Part shown: one piece after another, positions 1,637-50,855 of the stretch | How the letters are laid out: every line of letters begins with the position of its first letter | Numbering within the stretch: position 1 is the first letter of the stretch | Assembly (NCBI RefSeq): GCF_006345805.1 | Contig: NC_042998.1 | Coordinates: 80,352,001-80,416,000 of the forward strand | Source of the DNA: Octopus sinensis | Lineage: Eukaryota | DNA: 64,000 nt | Reading direction: 5' to 3' | Notes under the pieces: model-generated | What the model was told of the DNA's origin: nothing | Database searches by the model: none | The model's input: only the letters and a program-made list of their open reading frames with translations | Position numbers and translations under genes: made by a program

Positions 1637-4600
1637 TGTGTGTGTGTGTGTGCACGCGCGCACAGAATCCTACATATGTGAACAAAGCTTTCATGTAGAG
1701 TGTATTTCAGCAAACTATATTGTCAGTAGCTGTTTTGACAATGAAATATTTCAAATATTTCTACGACATTTGTCTTTGTACTGCTTCTTATCCATTTTTT
1801 TTTCATACTAAAAGTCAAGGAGGTAGTTTTTGTTGCAAATGCTGACATTTGTATATTGTTGGATAGGTGATTTTACACGTATAAACTCTTTCGCTTTATG
1901 AAGATCCAAGTTCTCACTTTAAAATCTTAGATTCAATGCCTTATATCAAAAGTTATTATGATCATCATTACCATTTGATGTCTATTTTTCCATGCTGATA
2001 TGGATTGGACAGTTTGATCGGAAGTAGTGGGCCAGAGGATTGCACCAAGCTTCAGTGTTTGCCTTGACATAGTTTCTATGACTCGATGCCCTTTCTAACA
2101 CCAACCACTTTACAGAATGTACTAGGTGCTTTTCATGTGGCACCAGCACCAGTGAGGTCACCAAGTAACTCACATAACGCAGCTCCTCTGCTGAGAGAAG
2201 TGTAATACTGAGGGAAGTACCTCATCAATTAGGAGGAAATACATGGATGCCAAGGAGTTAGTTAATAATGTACTGAGAATGATAAAAAAAATTCTAAAAA
2301 CGAAAACTCTACAAGATATGATTTGTTTAAAATCTATTTTGGATTTTGATTTGTGAAGGATTACAAACTTAATCAACCTCAATAAGTTTCATAATTTCCA
2401 AGAGACTGGACTCATCAACAGTCTAGTCTCTCTGGCTACAATATATTATTACAGCAGAGTAACTATAACTAAATTATTATTTTCTTCATTGATTGTGTTC
2501 ATATGATAATGTTTCATATGATAAAATCTTAATTCAGATACAAAAAAAGAAAACCATATATTTTTCTTTATTGCTTTACATTCATCATTTGTTGCTAATG
2601 AACAAATGCAGTTAAGTTCTGCTTGAGATAACCCATGACAGTAGGGTAATTAATCAAACAAAGCATTTAATCACTGTTTCTACTGATGATTAATTCATCT
2701 TTGTTGTAGGGCATCATGTCCTAAAGTTTAACATTTAGAAGATAGAGTTTATTACTAACAAGACAGCATCCAAAGAGCCACACCCGATTATTTCATTCCA
2801 GAATGAAATGACTTCTGTTATAGGTCTGTTTGATCAAAGTTGACCTGGTGCTAAATAATAAGGTGCCACCAGCTGACACTCACAACCAAGTCCTGGTTTG
2901 GTAGCATGTACCATACTTTCAATAATTGTTTTGGATTCCTATGTAATCATGAGCAGACACACACAAAATGTGGCAGATGGAAGAAAAGGGGGCTACACTA
3001 GCACTCAGCTGGTACTTATTGCAGCTGAATAGATTGGAGCAATGTGAAATAAAGTACCTTGCTCAAAGACATAACACACTGCCTGGTCCAGGAATTGAAC
3101 TCACATCCTAATCATACCAAGCTGAACCCCCTAACCACACAACCTCATGGCTAAATAATAACAACCACATTTAATTAATCAATGCTTCAGATGAATAAAA
3201 CAGGGACTTGAGCAAAAGAAACAAGCTCAATCTCAAGTATTAGATGAAGATTCATTAGTCTGTCTCACTGATACAATATAAAACTTAATGAGATGACTTC
3301 ACAAACTAGCTTGTCATTTTTGTGCCAGAAAATAAGAAAAGGTTGATCTCTTTATATTCAGATATGTTTACAGAATTTTAAATAACACTCCTATTCTTTT
3401 TGTAGCTAAAAAAGATGCTTCTGTTTTTAGTGTCGAAATAAACATCAGTAGGCTTTGTATTCAAACGTTAAAAAAAAAAAAAACAGATAAAGGAAAGAAA
3501 ACAATGCATCTGATTCATTTTGTTCCAACCTAAACACAAATATGCACATGTGCACACACATACACACACAAAAGCATGTGCATGCATACATATCTGCACA
3601 CAGACTTAGATTGATCAGAAAAACTATTTTAGAGCTGATATCACAATAACTATAGCAGTTCAGCATTATACCCACAATTAACAATAGGAAAGAGATACAG
3701 GTATAAAACCTAGTGTATGAGTGGTGCTGTGTTAGGTGCAGAAACACGTAGAATAACATTGCTGTATTACAGACAGCATTGAACATAAAAGTGAATAATG
3801 ACAATTCCACTCTTTAACACAATACCTACTTGCCTGAAACAAATACTGGTGCCATAAGGCATAAAACTGGCTGATTTACAGTATTTAAATTAAAACCTTG
3901 TATCATAATTTTTATGTAAAACTTTTTATTAATTTATGTTCCAAACACCTGCTTAATTAATACTTTCATTATTTTACTAAATCCTTCCACTTGAGTATTT
4001 CATTAGAAATGTAATCACATAGTGACAAGAGTGAAGTAACACAGTTGAAATTAGTTTCCCATTATAAACTCTTTAAAAGATTCTATATATTTGTGTTGTC
4101 ACCTTGGGTGAAACTCCATTAAAATAAATGTTAAATTTCAGGGAAAATATTTTCCTTAGTGAAGGTGGTGGATTGCAAGGTGCAGTAGTAGGTTTCTAGT
4201 GAGTATTCAACTTTATTGACATTGCTAATGCACTTTGGAAAGACATTAAAAATGCAGCGTCTTCAAGCTACCTTCCTTACAGCTAAGGGGTACTTAAAAC
4301 AAAACAAACCATAAGTGTTTATTTTAACAAATATATACAACCATGACAGAATTATATATACAACACAGATTGTTAAAGTGAGAGAAAAGAAGAGGGTAGA
4401 GAAAGATATGTATACAGAAAGAAAGAGGGACAGAAAGAGGTAGAAAGACAGAGAAAGAGATGCAGCCGGGCAAGGCAGTAAGGTGAAAGTGACTGCTTGC
4501 TCAGGGCTGACCTGGGACTATATAACAACAACAACAACAATCAGAAGTAGTCTGGGCAAGGCAAATATCAAGCAAGATGGTTTACAAGTGGACATGCTGC

Positions 4601-4671
4601 AGTTTAGTCACACAACTACACACACTGATGTTCCACTAATATTCAATCCATGCGGGTGAAATTTTTTTTAC

Positions 4672-4702
4672 CTGCATATTCCACATGTATTGGTCAGTGT
4701 TG
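4672..4702 (-). CDS. Candidate 31-nt cassette exon carrying an in-frame stop (Q-H-stop) after exon D
   Basis: Acceptor ttttttttgcctgttttccctgtacag| and donor CAG|gtaaaa. Sequence CAACACTGACCAATACATGTGGAATATGCAG. GCATG motifs lie downstream on the transcript strand at 4653-4649 and 4597-4593. Confidence 0.5.
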
Positions 4703-5871
4703 CTGTACAGGGAAAACAGGCAAAAAAAATTGAAGACGAAGCAAACACAAATTTCTAGAAATTTCTATACGGACATTGTAAAAATATTTGTTTAAAGGAT
4801 TCATTACAATTTTAGTAACTGAGAAGATATAAAATAAATATAATGAAATAAAACTTTACATTAAACAAATGGTATATGCCATCTGGAGAATATGTAACAC
4901 AGTAATAACTGATAATTTTCCCAAGTATCACGCTGTGCAATATTTTAGATATCAGACTAACAGATAGAAAAGCATGATTATTTTCTTATTTTTTACAATA
5001 TGATTTTGTATAAGGCCATTCGAAAGAAAATCTTCACAAATCAAGTAATAGATTTTGACAGTCAAGAAATTACATATTTTTACTGTAGGAGATCAATCAT
5101 AATAAAACTAAACTACTATTTATTTACTTTGAATATTTTCAGGACATATGATCAATCTAATTTATAGATTCGTCTGGGCAAAAAAGTTCATTTTTGTAGG
5201 TATAATTAGTGGGATTTATAATGGCATTTTGTCAACACTATAACACTCTTCACTAATTATAATCTCTTTTAAATAACTTTCTTAAAGTAAAATATGTTCA
5301 ACATAAATATCAGAATATATCCATTAACTGACATAACTACCTTAATTCATTAAAACAAACATAAAATACAAAGTTACTTAATTAAAAAAAAAAAAATATT
5401 GAAATAATTTCAGTTGAATTTTACTTATAAGTATAATGTATTTGTTGTAAATTTTACAGAAAATATATATTTCATTTAATTTATATTTTCAAAATAATAT
5501 AATTTACCTGATGAATATTTTCAGGACAATATATTTTATATGGTTATATATATTTCCAAGTCAATTTTTATCAAAGTATATTTTGAGGACAGTATAATTT
5601 ACTTGATGTATATTTTTCAAGAACTTTTGCAATATAATTGAAATGCTTGAATGTACAATTGGGATCGATATATTATATTTCTGGCAAATTTTCAGGACAG
5701 TATATATTTAATCTATGACATACTTTCAAGATCATCTTTTTACTCCTTTAATCTTGGGAAATAAATTTCCTGAAAAATTGGCCAACACACGAAAATTTTT
5801 TCAAAGAATCATCTATAAATCTGTTACAACTGACATTGTTTGAAGATGATCACAAGTATCTATCATCTTAC

Positions 5872-5976
5872 CTTGTTCAGAAGTGCTATTTCTTTTTCTA
5901 ACTCAGCAATCCGTCGATCTTTGTCATCAAGTAATTTTATAAGGCGTCGGTTCTCTTCACGCTCTCGGTTGAGGAG
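5872..5976 (-). CDS. PAWR: PAWR-like coiled-coil exon D (105 nt, phase 0->0): LLNREREENRRLIKLLDDKDRRIAELEKEIALLNK
   Basis: Acceptor tttttgttttcag|CTC, donor AAG|gtaaga. Close by-eye match to the Par-4 C-terminal coiled coil VVRERQENLRLVRLMQDKEEMIGKLKEEIDLLNR. The next exon (the DLDD...QL leucine zipper) is not seen in 1..5871. Confidence 0.9.
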
Positions 5977-9570: not shown

Positions 9571-9655
9571 GTCGGATGAGGTTCTATATCGACTTCGCTT
9601 GCCTCAGCCGGTCTTTGTGTCCAAGGGAGGGAAGGCATTCATAAGTGGGCTGGGC

Positions 9656-11049
9656 TCACTTGTCCTGCCTGGTCTTCTCACGCACAGAATACTTCCAAAG
9701 GTCTCGGTCTCTGGTCATTTCCTCAGTGAGGCCTAAAGTTCGAAGGTCGTGCTTCACCACCTCGTCCCAGGTTTTCCTGGGTCTACCTCTCCCACGGGTT
9801 CCCTCAACTGCTAGGGATTGGCACTTTCGCACACACCTATCTTCATCCATTCTCGCCACATGACCATACCAGCGCAATCGTCTCTCTTGCACACCACAAC
9901 TGATGCTTCTTAGGTACAACATTCTCTCAAGGTGCAAACGCTCTGGCGAGTATGTACACTGACATTACACATCCATCGGAGCATACTGGCTTCATTCCTC
10001 ACGAGCTTACGCATGTCCTCAGCAGTCACGGCCCATGTTTCGCTGCCATGTAGCATGGCTGTTCGTACACACGCATCATACAGTCTGCCTTTTACTCTGA
10101 GCGAGAGGCCTTTAGTCACCAGCAGAGGTAAGAGCTCCCTAAACTTTGCCCAGGCTATTCTTATTCTAGCAGTTACACTTTCAGCACACCCACCCCCACT
10201 ACTGACTTGGTCACCTAGATAACGGAAGCTATCAACTACTTCTAGTTTTTCCCCCTGGAAAGTGACGGAAGTTGTTTTCTGCAGATTTTCGGAGGTTAAT
10301 GCTCCCGAGCATCTGCCACATACAAAAACTATCTTCCCAGTTAGCCTACCTTTGACATTGCTGCACCTCTTATGTGTCCATAGCTTACACTGGGTACATC
10401 TTATAGAGTTTCTACCTACACCTTTTCTACAGATCGAGCAGGGCCATCTTCCTGAAGATATTTGTGGATTGTCTACCTTTCTACTTATTAGTACTTTGGT
10501 TTTAGCTAGGTTGACTCTAAGGCCCCTTGATTTTAAACCCTCCTTCCACACCTGGAACTTCTCCTCCAGTTCTGATAGTGACTCAGCAATAAGAGCAAGG
10601 TCGTCAGCGTAGAGGAGCTCCCAGGGACAGCCTGCCTTGAATTCCTCCGTAATTGCCTGGAGTACTATGATAAATAGGAGGGGGCTGAGTACTGAACCCT
10701 GGTGGACCCCAACCTCTACTTTGAATTCTTCTGTGTACATGTTGCCAACCCTAACCTTACTTACGGCATCTCTGTACATGGCTTGCACAGTCCTCACCAG
10801 CCATTCATCTATCCCTAGTTTCCTCATTGACCACCAGATAAGGGATCGGGGGACCCTATCAAAAGCTTTCTCCATGTCAACGAAAGCCAGGTACAGGGGC
10901 TTATCTTTGGCTAGGTATTTCTCCTGCAGCTGCCTTACCAGGAATATAGCATCAGTGGTGCTTTTCCCTGGCACGAACCCAAACTGCATCTCATCTAAAC
11001 TAACTCTCTCTCTAATTAGTTGGGCTATGACCCTCTCCGTAACCTTCAT
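9656..11049 (-). pseudogene. RTE ORF fragment: reverse transcriptase, PHD-like zinc finger and C-terminal domain, one frameshift near 9920
   Basis: ORF track 9910..11049 and 9656..9937. Comparison with the copy at ~24575 (ccaacctttctctc vs acaacattctctc) indicates a 1-nt deletion. Confidence 0.9.
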
Positions 11050-11267
11050 TGCATTATTTGTGGTTATTTATTTTAATTTTGTATTGTGCAGGTGTGGATA
11101 AGTACAAACAAGACTGTGTGGTTAAGAAGACTGCTTCATGACCATGTGGTCTTTGGTTCAGTCTCACAGCATGGCACCTTGAGCAAGTGTCTTCCAGTAT
11201 AGCCACAGGCTACTGAAAACCCTGTGAGTGGAATTTGGTAGACAGAAACTAAAAAGAAGCCTGTAGT

Positions 11268-14896: not shown

Positions 14897-14925
14897 CTTA
14901 GTGGCTTCAGCAACCGATGTGGATA
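14897..14925 (-). CDS. Candidate 29-nt microexon of the PAWR-like gene ((x)TA-STSVAEATK if entered in phase 1)
   Basis: Acceptor ctgtttctcttttgcatag| and donor AAG|gtaggc, in unique sequence. In frame only after a phase-1 donor. Confidence 0.5.
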
Positions 14926-15706: not shown

Positions 15707-16244
15707 CTTATCTAATGAACATTCTTCTTGTGATTGTTGCTGTTGGGAACCTTGGCACCAGTTTTCTTTGTATGATTTCACATTGTAGTTTGGATTTTCT
15801 TTCAGAGATGGCAGATGGCTTTGGTTATAAGTAGACTGTGACTGCCAACTGTCCTGCACTTGGGAGGACTGACTTGAAACTGGATGCTGGTACTCACTAT
15901 CTGGACAATGATGCAGGTCTCTTTTTTTTATCTGGGACTGTAATGTAGGCTCACGGGGAATCTTGCCAGATTCAATCTCTTTGTAGCGGGACATCACAGA
16001 AGAAGAGGATGAAGAAGAGTTGGAGCAAGTAGGAGTTTTAGATTCTTGGTCACTCCCCAATACTCGGAAACTAGAACTGGGTGGAGAGTAAGGACTTCGG
16101 GAACTTCTGTAGGGCTTGTAACTTGTCTTAGCACCTGATGATGCTGGCTCTGATTGACCAATCAGAGTTAGGTTAGTTTCTGATTGGCTAACTGCACTAT
16201 CATAATCTTGATTATCTTCCAAGTCAGCATCGAGATCAGATGGG
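15707..16244 (-). CDS. PAWR: PAWR-like coding exon C (538 nt, phase 2->0), Ser/Gln-rich low-complexity: PSDLDADLEDNQDYDSAVSQSETNLTLIG...QEECSLDK
   Basis: Lies within ORF 15701..16282. Acceptor tttttttcttgtag|C, donor AAG|gtatga. The sequence is non-repetitive and open throughout, and phases match both neighbouring exons. Internal alternative donors are possible (see findings). Confidence 0.85.
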
Positions 16245-16955: not shown

Positions 16956-18474
16956 TAAAGGTCGATTGAAAAGTTTATAGGCTGACCAAGATACTCTCAT
17001 AGAATATGACGAAATGAAGTTTATTTTTCAACATAGTCCCCGCAACCCTGTGCTCCACACACTTCTTCCATTGGTGTTGCAGTGCTTGGATCCCATTGGT
17101 GAAGAGGTTTTCATGTTGTTAGTCAAAAAAAGTCATCAACAACAAATATGATGTCATTATCACTACAATAACGGTTCCCAGCCAAGCGTTTTTTCATGTC
17201 AAAAAACAGATGATAGTCAGATGGGGTCAAATCAGGAGAATAGGGAGGGCAATCAACCTATTCAAAGCTACAGTCATGCACAGCAGCCATTGAAACCAAG
17301 AGCCTTTGTGCTGGAGCGTTGTCCTAATGAAACGACCCCTTTCATCAGTTTCCCTGGGCATCTGGTCTTGAAAGCTTTTCATAACTGCCACAGCAACTTG
17401 GCACAATACTCTCCTTCGATGGCATGGCCCCTTTGAAGATAATAAACACAAAGCCTCTTGCATTCCAAACAACTGAGTCCATTACCTTCCCTGTAGATGA
17501 AGTGACCTTGACCTTTGGAGCAGGTGAGGAGAGCTGTTTCTACTGCATCCATGGTCTTTTTGATTTTGCTCAAGGTGATGAACCCAACACTTATCCTGTG
17601 TTAGGATACATTCAAGGAAACCAGCTGGATCTGCCTCAAACAATTTCAGACATTCCTGTGATATAATCAGGCTGGAGCACTTTTAATCAAATGTCAGAAG
17701 ATGTAGCACCCGAAGCCTTTGTCATGCCAAGTTCATTGTGCAGAATATTCTCAACTCACTCACGGTATATACTAATAGCATTGGCTACTTGATCAGTTGC
17801 CTGTCATCCATCACCATGTGGTGAACATGATCAATGTTTTCCTCAGTGGTAGCAGTTGCAGGATGTCCACACCTTGGGTAATCTTCAAAACTCTCCTTTA
17901 CCCTCCAAAATTCAGCTGCCCACTTTAGCACTGTTGATAAAACTGGAGCATAATCCCCTAATGTAGCAACCTATTTCTTTATTACCCACAAGGGGCTAAA
18001 CACAGAGGGGACAAACAAGGACAGACATAGGTATTAAGTCGATTACATCGACCCCAGTGTGTAACTGGTACTTAATTTATCGACCCCGTAAGGATGAAAG
18101 GCAAAGTTGACCTTGGCGTAATTTGAACTCACAACGTAACGCAGACGAAATACTGCTAAGCATTTCGCCCGGTGTGCTAACGTTTCTGCCAGCTCGCCGC
18201 CTAATGTAGCAACCGTGTCAGTATGAATGTCTTAAGGGGCTAAACTATTTTTCTACAGGTACTTGATAACACCATGATGCCAAATTGTGTCCGTTTTCAA
18301 GATGAGTTGCTGCTAGATACTTTTGAAGTCTTCTTTGAACAGTCAGATGTCAGTTTACCTGGAGAGTAACAATGCAATTATTAATAAGATGAGTTGAAAT
18401 TCATGCATGCAAGATTTAACAGCTCCAGAATCACTCCTTCAAAGTCAGCCTATGAACTTTTCAGCCCACCCTCA
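16956..18474 (-). mobile_element. Decayed mariner (Tc1/mariner) DNA transposon interrupted by a SINE
   Basis: Imperfect ~31-bp TIRs (taaaggtcgattgaaaagtttataggctgac / gtcagcctatgaacttttcagcccaccctca) flanked by TA. The minus strand encodes the mariner motif PPYSPDLTPSDYHLF at ~17205-17249. Many stops and frameshifts. Confidence 0.9.
17972..18201 (-). mobile_element. Near-intact MetaSINE-like SINE inserted into the mariner, 13-bp TSD
   Basis: 5' GGCGGCGAGCTGGCAGAAACG, B-box-like GAGTTCAAAT, core GCCTTTCATCCTT.CGGGGTCGATAAATTAAGTACCAG. TSD taatgtagcaacc at 17959-17971 and 18202-18214. Confidence 0.9.
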
Positions 18475-31053: not shown

Positions 31054-31094
31054 CTCTTTGTTCTTCGTGCAGTGTATGTTTTAGGGACATGGTC
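31054..31094 (-). CDS. PAWR: PAWR-like coding exon B (41 nt, phase 0->2): DHVPKTYTARRTK(S)
   Basis: Strong acceptor ttcttttcttttctag|GAC and donor AAGAG|gtaaga. The terminal AG joins the first C of exon 16244 to make AGC (Ser), giving ...ARRTKS-PSDLD. It resembles the short vertebrate exon EPPRTVSGRYKS. Confidence 0.85.
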
Positions 31095-42486: not shown

Positions 42487-42609
42487 ATCAGATGCCATAG
42501 TGGAATTCCGATTATCTGCATGAATTACCTCATTAAACGTGGTATTCCTTTTTGTCTCTAAGGCAATCTTGTCACCCTCATCTTCATCATCAAGTGAATC
42601 TCCAGTGCT
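42487..42609 (-). CDS. PAWR: PAWR/Par-4-like gene, internal coding exon A (123 nt, phase 0->0): STGDSLDDEDEGDKIALETKRNTTFNEVIHADNRNSTMASD
   Basis: Minus-strand acceptor ttttaaattctcttttag|AGC and donor GAT|gtaagt; 41 open codons. The acidic stretch followed by T-x-x-N-T-x-x-N-E resembles vertebrate Par-4 'CLDEYEDDE...TQQNTIQNE' (compared from memory, not aligned). Not present in the ORF track in this frame. Confidence 0.85.
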
Positions 42610-43823: not shown

Positions 43824-46800
43824 ATGCTTCATAGCAGCAAGTTTATTGCCATGAGGTTAAGAATTTTGCTTTGGAACCCTGTGGTTCCAGACTTAATCCC
43901 TTGCATGCACTTTGGTCAAATGTCTTTTAGTTTAGCTTATGTCTGACCAATATCTGCTCTGTGAAATTTGCTAGGCCGACAATATGCAGAAGCCTGTTGT
44001 ATATATATGTGTGTGTATGTGTTGCAACTGTACTTATGTCTGTGATGATGTTCACCAATATAAGCTGATGTACTGAGTTGCATTTCTTGTTCCTGTACGT
44101 TGAAAAACATAACTAAGCCATTCAGTAAATAGAAATCAATAAAGTAAGTACCAGGCTGAAACAAGTATTGGTGTTGATACGATTGACTAAAATCTCTGAA
44201 GGTTGTTCCCCAGCATGGCCAGAGTCCAATGACTGAAACTAGTAAAAAATAAAAAATAATAAAATAAACCAATTCAAAGATGTCTTTCATGTAAAAACAA
44301 CAGATTGGGGTTAGTATTGTTAAGATATGTTCAAACTGACCGGATGTGACCCTTCACACCAACCCTTCAATATCACTCTAAAAATAAACTGTTACCTCAT
44401 CAAGATCTCAAAGCTACAAAATAATGCATGATTAATTCAAAACAATGTGAATAAATAAGCATTACTTTTGACAGAATAATTTGAATGCCAAAGGGTTAAT
44501 ATAAAGAACATTAAAAGCCAAACTGGAACTAAATAAGCAGCAAGGGGGAAATGATGTTAACTGTACACATTTCACTTAGCTGAGTGCAGGCATTAATAGC
44601 TATCTATCACATCACAGGGGGACGAAGGTGCAAAATGTTTGAAATATTAATGAGAAACTGTAAGAGTCATAGCTAGATGTGACAACAGAATGCTGGGTTA
44701 CCAGACCATGTGTTAATAGTCTATATCTCATTATCAATGCTGTGTCATTGATGAAAACACTTAAACTCTAAATGTCCTAGTCCACTGAGCTGTAAGTAGA
44801 AGTGCAGTTTACTTCTGTAAACAAAGGGATCACTGTTTCAGGTGGTCAGCTGGCAGAATTTTTAGCACATTCAGCAAAATATTTAGTGGCATTTCTTCTT
44901 ACTATGCTCTGATTTCAAATTTTGCTTAGGTCAACTTTACTTTCATCCTTTCAGGGCCAATTAAATGAAGTACCAGACAAGTATTGGGGTCAATGTAATA
45001 GACTTGTCCCTCCCTGCTAAAACTGCTGGCCTTGCACCAAAATTTTGAAACAATTATATGGAAACTGTAGTCACCGCTATAAGAGTACTTGTAGTCACTA
45101 CATCAACAATGTGACAACAGTCACCATCATACTCATGGTTTATCTTTAGCTGGCAGCTATGTGGTAGGGAAAAGTAAACATGTTATAGCTAGTAACTACG
45201 TGAGGGAAATATGTATATGATTAGTCTGCTCTGAATGACAAATATTTAGATTATGACCAAGATATTAACTCGACAAAGGCTTTCATTTAAATCAAAGTTA
45301 GCACTAATAATCAGCTTCTAATTTATAGTCTTTTTTGCTAACCTCCTATTTCTATTAATTCTGCAGTTAATTTTTGCTAAATTTTACTGTGGCTGAACCA
45401 ATTATTCATTCTGATCTCAACCCAACTGAGAATGCTTCTGGCCCTATGATCAAAAATTAAGAATTTTAAAGAATTCATGTTTAAATTAAAATTTTGCAAC
45501 ATAATTTTAGGGGAAAAAATATCTAAGTTAAATATAGAAATATATGTAAAAGTTATAATGCAACAAAATTCTTAATTATTTTCCAAATTAGTATACGCAT
45601 AGTATATTTCATTAGAGATATCATCATAAAAGGGTTTCTAATGCAAAAGTTAATTACTTTATGTAACACCAACAAATTTTTTAATGTTTTCAAAATTAAT
45701 TGAAATGCACAGAGAGCATATTCATATGTTCACATAAAAGTTACAAATTAACCCTTGTTACCATATTTCTGTTGAAATATGGTAACTGCCTTTATATCAA
45801 TTGATTTAGAAAATAATAAAGAATTTAGTAAAATAATTTTGTGATTATTAACCTAGTGTTTGAAGCAAATTAACATGGAATGTTAATAAAAAGCTCTAAT
45901 TTAGATAACTTAAATCAGAAAGTTTATATCAGACAATCAAAGGTAGGCTCAGACAGGTTAGTTATCAAAAGGGTAAAACTTATAAATTGATCAGAATTTA
46001 TTTAAGACTTCGGAGCAAATGTGCAATTTAAAACAGTAGCTGACTCAGAAAGGTATGCCATGACATGAAAACAATTAATTAGTTGGTCAGTTGTTAGGTT
46101 TGAAGTAGAAAACATCAGCAGACATTTTCTAATAGAGTTCATACATAAGTCTAACAACACCAAGCAAGTTAATCACACACATCAAGACAATTTGTTCCAG
46201 AAAACAAAAAAATGCACATATTAAGGTATGTATTATTTCAGATGGTAAACTAAAACTATAGTAAACATTTTCTATACAATACCATTCAATGGAATTTTTT
46301 TGTTATTGTATTTCTATATATACAATAGAAAGTTTCTACAAAATAAACAAAAAACATGTAAATGGTGAAGAGGAGAAAAATATTTAATAAAAGATGATAA
46401 AATCATAATTTAAATGTTGTTTAAAGATATTTTTTTTTAAATTATCCAAATATTATCAATTCAAAAATAATTTCTGTATTACAAGAAGAATGGCAAACAA
46501 TATTTGTGTTCAGTTTTAAATCCATGTAAAACCATTGTTTTCTAAGTGTGAGAACTTTTTAAAAATAATTTATTGTGAAGGTTTGAAATGAGCAATTTTG
46601 AATGAATAAAAAGATCAGATGATTGTATTAATAAAAAATATAATGCAACAGTAAAACTACTAGAGTAGTTTTAATATGATTTATATGCTTTTGACGTCAT
46701 AAGCATTTAGGAACTTTGAGAATGTGAAATAATTCTTCTTTGGAATGATGAATCTCAAAGCGTATAAAATTAGTGTGAAAATATTGGGTTAAAAAAATGT

Positions 46801-49838: not shown

Positions 49839-50855
49839 TCAGGTCATTAAGAATAAAATGGTCTGATTTTTTTATGCACCAAGTTTGACAGTTGTTAACT
49901 ATGTTTTATCCTGACAATTCTTTGTTTTACAACATTGAAGAGTTACATCATCACTTTTCAAAATGCAATTCACGGTGTCTGGTTATATTGTGAGTTTTCT
50001 CTTGTAAATTAATTTTTGTGAACCTATGGATAGATCAAAAATTCATGTTGTTTATGAATATGAGTTCCATTGTGGAACCAATGCATCCTAAACAGCTTGA
50101 AACATCAATGAACTGTTTGGTGAAGATATGACAAATAACGCACTGTACATCGATGGTTTGAGAAGTTCCTGTCTGGTGACTTTACTCTTGAAAATCAGCC
50201 CCAAAGTAGACCTGAGAACAAGGTGGATAATGATGAGCTGTAAACGGTAAAAGCAGATACATCTCAAACTACACGTGAGTTAGCAGAAGCTAATGGTGTC
50301 GTCCACTACAGCTTCATGGGACCTGGTAAGTCAATTACAGTGGATGTATACATCAACCAATTGGATGAAATGATGAGTGAAATTGCAATTAAACAACCAA
50401 GATTGGTCAATAGAGACAGGTCAATTCTCTTGCAAGACAATGCTTGACCACATGTTGCACAAAGAACGCTACTCAAGTGACAGAAGCTGAGCTCAAGTGA
50501 CAGAAAATGAGCTCAAGTGACAGAAACTGAGCTCAAGTGACAGAAACAGAAGTACTTTGTCATCCACCATAAACACCAGACCTTGCACCAACTGATTATC
50601 ACAATTTCCAGGCATTAGACAACTTTTTGCAAAGAAAAGACTTCAAATCTGAAGATGCAAAAACAGCCTTTCATGATTCCATCACCTCTTGCTCTCCAGA
50701 ATTCTTAGCTGCCAACATAAATAAGCTATTGATAAAATGGCAAAATTGTGTTGATAATTTAGGTGCATACTTTGATTAACTGCATTGCATTTTGTTGAGA
50801 TAAAGTTAAAGAAACTTTCAGTTCAAATTCGGACATTTCATTCTTAATGACCTGA
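49839..50855 (+). mobile_element. Internally deleted, decayed mariner (Hsmar1/cecropia-like) element
   Basis: TA|TCAGGTCATTAAGAATAAAATG ... CATTTCATTCTTAATGACCTGA|TA TIRs. Translation remnants RWFEKFLSGDFTLENQP, LLQDNA*PHVA, HPP*TPDLAPTDYH and KWQNCVDNLGAYFD. Confidence 0.92.
50472..50547. repeat. 20-bp tandem repeat (~3.8 copies) inside the mariner
   Basis: ctcaagtgacagaa(g/a)(c/a)tgag repeated. Confidence 0.95.

Follow-up and report, generated by a model that had tools for sequence, protein, structure and literature searches.

Can the leucine zipper of Par-4 be removed by splicing? A 31-nt segment on the minus strand of the 64,000-nt stretch of Octopus sinensis DNA analysed here (the window) raises this question, as an earlier note on this DNA had described it as a stop-bearing cassette exon just before the zipper exon. 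Our main reading, which we hold with a probability of about 0.7, is that the cassette places a stop before the last exon, that it belongs to an ancient lophotrochozoan switch predicted to be promoted by RBFOX, and that its inclusion would give a stable Par-4 without most of the zipper. The parts of it that were directly found are both joints, both RNA forms, annotated proteins with short tails from 22 named species, and an exon with TGCATG in bivalve-like DNA.

Par-4 gene and the cassette exon

The gene had been taken for Par-4 from its sequence, and this identification held up. Named Octopus Par-4 proteins match with 97-100% identity, the tail can be aligned with the coiled coil and leucine zipper of PDB 5FIY (E 7.8e-12), and the SAC motif KRKLREKRRSTGVV was found both in P0005 and at G000:C2:80477543-80477568, in the first coding exon about 61 kb past the other end of the window; the strict SAC pattern gave matches in Par-4 only. 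In its SAC motif, coiled coil and zipper the octopus gene resembles vertebrate Par-4 (PAWR, 5FIY). Exons within the window were placed by mapping P0015, all on the minus strand. They comprise an optional 87-nt exon with repeat-like sequence (44152..44238), annotated in three Octopus species, an exon at 42487..42609 with an alternative inner donor at 42529, at which annotated isoforms lose 14 residues (VIHADNRNSTMASD), a 41-nt exon (31054..31094), a large low-complexity exon (15707..16244), which is supported by both protein mapping and an RNA contig and is joined directly to exon D, and exon D itself (5976-5872, LLNREREE...IALLNK), which aligns to 5FIY and encodes the homodimer part of the coiled coil and the first two zipper heptads. 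The 87-nt exon shows 82-89% resemblance to three other places in the window and is likely an exonised repeat.

The zipper exon (DVEAF...LSTTV-stop) extends from G000:C2:80342583 downward, 14 kb past the cassette and outside the window, so that the intron between exon D and the zipper exon measures 15,288 nt. Two contigs follow the zipper exon over 300 nt up to a microsatellite, an AATAAA lies at +406, and the exon appears to be terminal, as seen over these 300 nt. No retrocopy was apparent, because the cassette region (4550-4800) and the zipper exon each gave one match in the G000 search.

The cassette (4702-4672, minus strand) is defined by its sequence, by joints in RNA contigs and by annotated proteins that end in LLNKQH. 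The earlier note had described a unique segment between a pyrimidine/CAG acceptor and a CAG/gtaaaa donor, which agrees with the sequence: the acceptor (4703..4730) is a pyrimidine tract with a TGC and a CAG at its end, with GT..AG intron ends in the observed joint, and the donor gtaaaa (4666..4671) is used in run X7. Read in phase 0 after exon D, the exon gives CAA CAC TGA (Q-H-stop) with 22 nt from the TGA to the next junction, both as had been stated. The two GCATG motifs reported within about 80 nt downstream on the transcript strand start +18 and +74 nt past the donor (4653 and 4597). The first, a predicted RBFOX-type site (4649..4654), reads cGCATG in this genome and TGCATG in organisms E and F; at the second (4593..4597), none of the differences listed for X18 or X20 is located. 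The full TGCATG hexamer is present at neither octopus site in this genome. Two or more GCATG per 80 nt are to be expected in about 0.3-0.4% of such intervals, given 63 GCATG on the minus strand of the 64-kb window.

Several other features were noted in the window. Positions 200-945 and 943-1652 are tandem copies that hardly differ (99.3% identity along about 710 nt), owing to either a recent duplication or an assembly artefact. An intron holds what we take to be a broken LINE-like reverse-transcriptase element followed by short tandem units (about 9650-11050, minus strand), and fragments at about 16990-17970 (minus strand) and 50244-50776 (plus strand) presumably resemble mariner-type transposases. 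Between the large exon and exon D lies a 29-nt segment (14897-14925, minus strand) with an AG acceptor, a TGC and an AAG/gtaggc donor; it is absent from the X7 contig described below, and no support for it was seen.

Included and skipped forms in RNA, proteins and DNA

The RNA evidence consists of assembled contigs of four runs (24 listed), taken to be RNA by guess; such contigs prove the presence of a form, not its absence. The joint 4702-5872, with GT..AG ends, was present in two of the four runs compared, X3 (organism A, depth 48.4) and X7 (organism B, depth 51.7), which come from different studies. A 1,635-nt contig of X7 leads from the large upstream exon via exon D and the cassette to the opening letters of the zipper exon; the joint between cassette and zipper exon was found in X7 only, where the loose ends of the contig were matched to the genome. 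In a 1,108-nt contig of X10, exon D is followed by 300 other letters, 31 fewer than in X7, and from this length the contig is read as the skip form, which is also present in annotated proteins that continue as LLNK-DVEAF. The contig of X1 ends at the end of exon D with no joint seen, and in a minor contig of X10 (depth 4.9) the cassette runs on into the downstream intron. Of the two junctions singled out for an RNA search, 5872 to 4702 was thus found in X3 and X7, and 4672 to the next exon in X7. The cassette is an alternatively spliced exon, included or skipped by sample, and the assembled form differs between samples because X3 and X7 include the cassette while X10 skips it. The zipper-minus isoform by alternative splicing that the earlier note had proposed is therefore borne out by the joints in X3 and X7, the full path in X7 and the skip in X10.

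Among annotated proteins, LLNK-QH endings are present in O. bimaculoides (XP_014771228.1), O. sinensis (XP_029657044.1) and O. vulgaris (P0002), and three out of eight members of one cephalopod cluster end in LLNK-KH. A quick tree places this cluster as the sister group of the octopods, so it is probably squid or cuttlefish. More widely, 255 of 373 stored Par-4 relatives reach the end of exon D, with long tails in 213, tails of 1-3 residues in 27, tails starting with Val in 10 (mostly intron read-through) and other tails in 5, the latter two groups being left out of the short-tail count. The 27 short tails correspond to 23 rows from 22 named species, three other cephalopod rows and one row, P0190 (1-residue tail, weak register), that was left out of the species count. 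The species belong to four lophotrochozoan phyla (molluscs, a brachiopod, ribbon worms and an annelid); 20 of the 22 have a zipper-bearing twin, and same-species pairs diverge exactly at this junction. Represented are bivalves (Crassostrea, Magallana, Saccostrea, Potamilus), gastropods (Patella, three Haliotis, Gigantopelta, Pomacea, Littorina, Babylonia, Biomphalaria, Physella), cephalopods, a chiton, Lingula, two nemerteans and Owenia, most of the short-tail proteins being automatic annotations (RefSeq, UniRef). Accessions of such short isoforms include XP_041351411.1, XP_078322527.1, XP_013417058.1, XP_064627600.1 and CAH1799234.1. The tails vary, with Q, H, QH, KH, HY, EN, KS, RA, LR, CYH and PKE among others. 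Conservation in cephalopods and other molluscs, on which the proposal had been made to depend, is seen in the LLNK-QH and LLNK-KH endings of cephalopods and in the short tails across four phyla. From these matching forms, the short-tail form is likely ancient, far more so than had been proposed. Other unusual endings at the same junction are a tail of 5 residues in P0279 (Tubulanus), a frameshift in the zipper exon of P0303 (Saccostrea cucullata) and an insertion of 6 residues in P0302.

No short tail was found among the Mytilus-type members listed (15/28 and 15/17) or scallops, nor in 49 named arthropod rows or 28 vertebrate-type rows; a vertebrate search scored on exon D returned seven proteins, none of them short-tailed, which are too few to show absence. 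Since most of these rows each stand for a whole cluster, and scoring over the full length gives zipper-bearing forms an advantage, short tails may nevertheless exist in mussels, scallops, arthropods and vertebrates.

At the DNA level, one metagenome locus (L017) contains a true Par-4 exon, whose exon D is closest to the clam Mya and P0046; 11 of 12 metagenome loci were dropped as unrelated coiled coils. The intron of L017 (2,932 nt) holds a 34-nt exon, predicted from DNA alone, that reads CAC TAA (H-stop), has an acceptor and a donor and leaves 28 nt between stop and junction. As in octopus, a TGC lies in the pyrimidine tract. A TGCATG is located 9 nt past the donor. Outside octopus, the exon itself is known from this one contig. 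When a filter for stop-bearing exons of 20-60 nt, written after both exons were seen, was run over the introns, the 34-nt exon was the sole candidate in L017, while the 15,288 nt of the octopus intron contained four candidates, with a downstream GCATG only at the real cassette; shuffles yielded any candidate in 6/500 (L017) and 4/100 (octopus) cases. Primary likeness of the two exons is weak (45/5000 shuffles, exon to exon), and intron-wide it is not above chance (82/500 shuffles).

A conserved block of 217 nt surrounds the cassette (4550..4766, minus strand), with 1 listed substitution compared to 20 (X18) and 26 (X20) in the next ~465 nt. Fisher's test of block versus flank on the differences listed gave p values of 0.007 (X18) and 0.0005 (X20), for a block boundary chosen after the data were seen; the values become 0.27 (X18, 4 unlisted differences) and 0.027 (X20) if all unlisted differences fall in the block. 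Contigs of X17 do not span the cassette. Within the block, the exchange 4654 G>A (plus strand) turns the first site into TGCATG in X18 and X20 (organisms E and F). The downstream (U)GCAUG is accordingly conserved, as TGCATG in L017, X18 and X20, which supports the earlier note on this point.

The common junction, phase and length of 1-3 residues in every case, the recurrence of His (QH, KH, HY, HS, HQ, H, CYH, MIH) and the layout shared by L017, with its donor and downstream TGCATG, make it unlikely that short tails arose repeatedly or from alternative last exons instead of from a single ancient cassette. A repeated origin would account for the differing tail sequences and for the lack of short tails in the mussel and scallop rows listed, and 19 non-cephalopod species are known from proteins only; an alternative last exon would fit the minor X10 contig that enters the downstream intron, where AATAAA is found at +348, +454 and +741.

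Splicing control, decay and the truncated protein

RBFOX binds (U)GCAUG and promotes inclusion when bound downstream, and SRRM4/eMIC uses an upstream UGC, as described in PMC10551640. Candidate sites of both types, a downstream (U)GCAUG and an upstream TGC, are present in octopus and in L017, and RBFOX bound downstream is predicted to promote inclusion of the cassette, presumably where RBFOX is abundant, as in neurons or muscle. The cassette resembles neural microexons and poison exons (RBFOX, SRRM4/eMIC) in its length below 50 nt, its downstream (U)GCAUG and the TGC in its pyrimidine tract; unlike these, it breaks the frame yet is positioned to escape decay. By the usual junction rule, a stop more than ~50 nt before the last junction triggers nonsense-mediated decay. 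As only 22 nt lie between its stop and the last junction, the next exon appearing to be terminal, the included mRNA would escape junction-dependent decay. The expectation that this transcript escapes decay is in line with the contigs, in which the included form is abundant and not degraded in two runs (depth ~50).

A regulated poison exon, through which nonsense-mediated decay would reduce Par-4 and no protein would be made, is in our view an improbable reading of the cassette. Poison microexons are a known class (PMC10551640), and such a role would suit the in-frame stop at codon 3, the length of both exons (1 mod 3, so that a second stop follows in the shifted frame) and the rarity of the included form among cephalopod contigs (3 vs 137), but no more than 22 nt (28 nt in L017) separate the stop from the last junction, inclusion adds only ~115 nt of 3’ UTR, and the included form is the one that the assemblies follow past both branch points in X7, and past the first in X3, at a depth of ~50.

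Residues 257-291 of Par-4 form the homodimer part, 292-332 the zipper and 295-301 the export signal, and the zipper, the main partner site, is unstable as a homodimer (PMC5563986). The junction falls before the equivalent of Asp305, and the equivalents of D305, E310, N313, L316, N320, L323 and L330 are kept in octopus. The short form would therefore lose four of the six zipper heptads, from the Asp305 equivalent onward, and would retain the other two along with the export signal, the homodimer subdomain and the SAC motif. It should still dimerise, and zipper-dependent partners (MYPT, aPKC and others in vertebrates) would be lost or weakened; we infer that inclusion likely yields a Par-4 able to dimerise but uncoupled from its partners. 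Zipper-deleted Par-4 mutants still kill cells according to a review (PMC7790818). In cultured vertebrate cells, Par-4 is a binding partner of MYPT1 and protects it (PMC4819215, PMC4139802), an interaction that has been questioned in tissue (PMC6910671), and Par-4-MYPT binding is known only in vertebrates.

Comparison with MYPT and meaning of the probable switch

The equal length of 31 nt had led to the suggestion of a special link to exon 24 of vertebrate MYPT1. Human MYPT1 exon 24 has 31 bp and acts by frameshift, and the normal stop is located in E26, two exons after exon 24 (PMC9367544, PMC13755552), which therefore is not in the last intron; its inclusion is tissue-restricted (PMC9367544). 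As with exon 24, inclusion of the short octopus Par-4 cassette of 31 nt costs the protein its C-terminal leucine zipper, which is of the PF15898 type. Unlike exon 24, the cassette is found in another gene and in lophotrochozoans instead of vertebrates, its stop lies inside the exon, the zipper exon follows directly (last intron, not the one before, whereas E25 and E26 follow in MYPT1), and its length is not fixed (34 nt in L017). The 31-nt match is likely a coincidence, because intron and stop mechanism differ and the bivalve-like counterpart has 34 nt, and on the same grounds the special link is not supported: the Par-4 exon works like MYPT1 exon 24 but is not a member of that switch. Shared ancestry of the two exons is very unlikely and largely refuted by the frameshift with the stop two exons on in MYPT1 and by the own stop, the place directly before the zipper exon and the variable length of the Par-4 cassette, although length and outcome are equal and the tails are alike. 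As for the latter, PF15898 (MYPT tail) matches Par-4 tails in 7/10 proteins, a set picked partly for known matches or short length, all below the curated cut-off of 32.4 bits (best score 30.7, E 5e-7) and ending at profile positions 100-101. Splicing noise or annotation artefact, for which one could cite that the runs were only guessed as RNA and that many proteins are automatic predictions, is refuted by joints with exact GT..AG ends, seen at depth ~50 under two organism labels and in two different studies, by parallel forms in four phyla and by the local conservation.

The closest analogue of the Par-4 cassette is a predicted zipper cassette in octopus MYPT. This gene is located 92 Mb off on the same contig and has a 17-codon exon followed by two tandem 28-codon zipper exons (G000:C2:172383135-172383221 and 172396526-172396612; L009, L008, L013, L014). 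The first of them starts with Q-H, ends in TAG/gtaaat and has GCATG at +60 and +125; it is predicted to be a stop-bearing zipper-swap cassette in the intron equivalent to that of Par-4. Both cassettes bear a stop and a donor, are in phase 0, lie in the intron before the terminal zipper exon and have two GCATG downstream. Unlike the Par-4 cassette, the MYPT exon, as predicted from DNA, encodes a whole second zipper (87 nt) and so would swap the zipper rather than remove it.

MYPT (G000:C2:172322895, L035) and Par-4 (80477543-80477568, L030) also share E-[KR]-R-R-S-T-G-V, which we take to be likely ROCK sites (T853 in MYPT and T163 in Par-4 in human), and 10-11/28 residues are shared between the zippers; the comparison of the two tails suggests common ancestry. 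DNA likeness to the MYPT second-zipper exon was rejected as evidence, both for the Par-4 cassette (510/5000, one base off register, and 524/3000 shuffles) and for the L017 exon (1456/3000 shuffles), and a tblastn comparison of 120 kb of the MYPT locus with four Par-4 proteins yielded nothing beyond E values of 0.13 and 0.32. Descent of one cassette from the other is a bold reading because there is no significant DNA likeness between them. In its full form, which we entertain only tentatively, Par-4 would be a detached MYPT tail half (with RRSTGV, coiled coil, zipper and last intron shared), the stop exon would be a decayed MYPT second-zipper cassette, and one RBFOX programme would have switched both for >500 million years, swapping the MYPT zipper and dropping the Par-4 zipper. 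If true, this would mean that myosin phosphatase control was rewired in spiralian muscle or neurons.

The Par-4 zipper-off isoform is real, conserved across four phyla and apparently undescribed. Short isoforms are already known in RefSeq and UniRef as automatic predictions; full-text literature searches returned no description of a zipper-less Par-4 splice form and no paper on PAWR with octopus, and supplementary tables of cross-species splicing atlases may list the exon. In contrast to octopus, no natural zipper-less splice form was found in the 28 vertebrate-type Par-4 rows or the literature searched. Par-4 has been studied almost only as a vertebrate tumour suppressor, where the forms lacking a zipper have been deletions made in the laboratory. 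Such an isoform occurring naturally in four phyla would imply that the truncation has been selected, and as the cut comes very close to the border that divides the homodimer part from the unstable part that binds partners, the isoform may serve as a natural test of the zipper’s role. The cassette would also be a clear example of a conserved, frame-breaking short exon that makes protein, not decay, and, together with the predicted MYPT cassette, would place one zipper type under splicing control in two genes of a single pathway.
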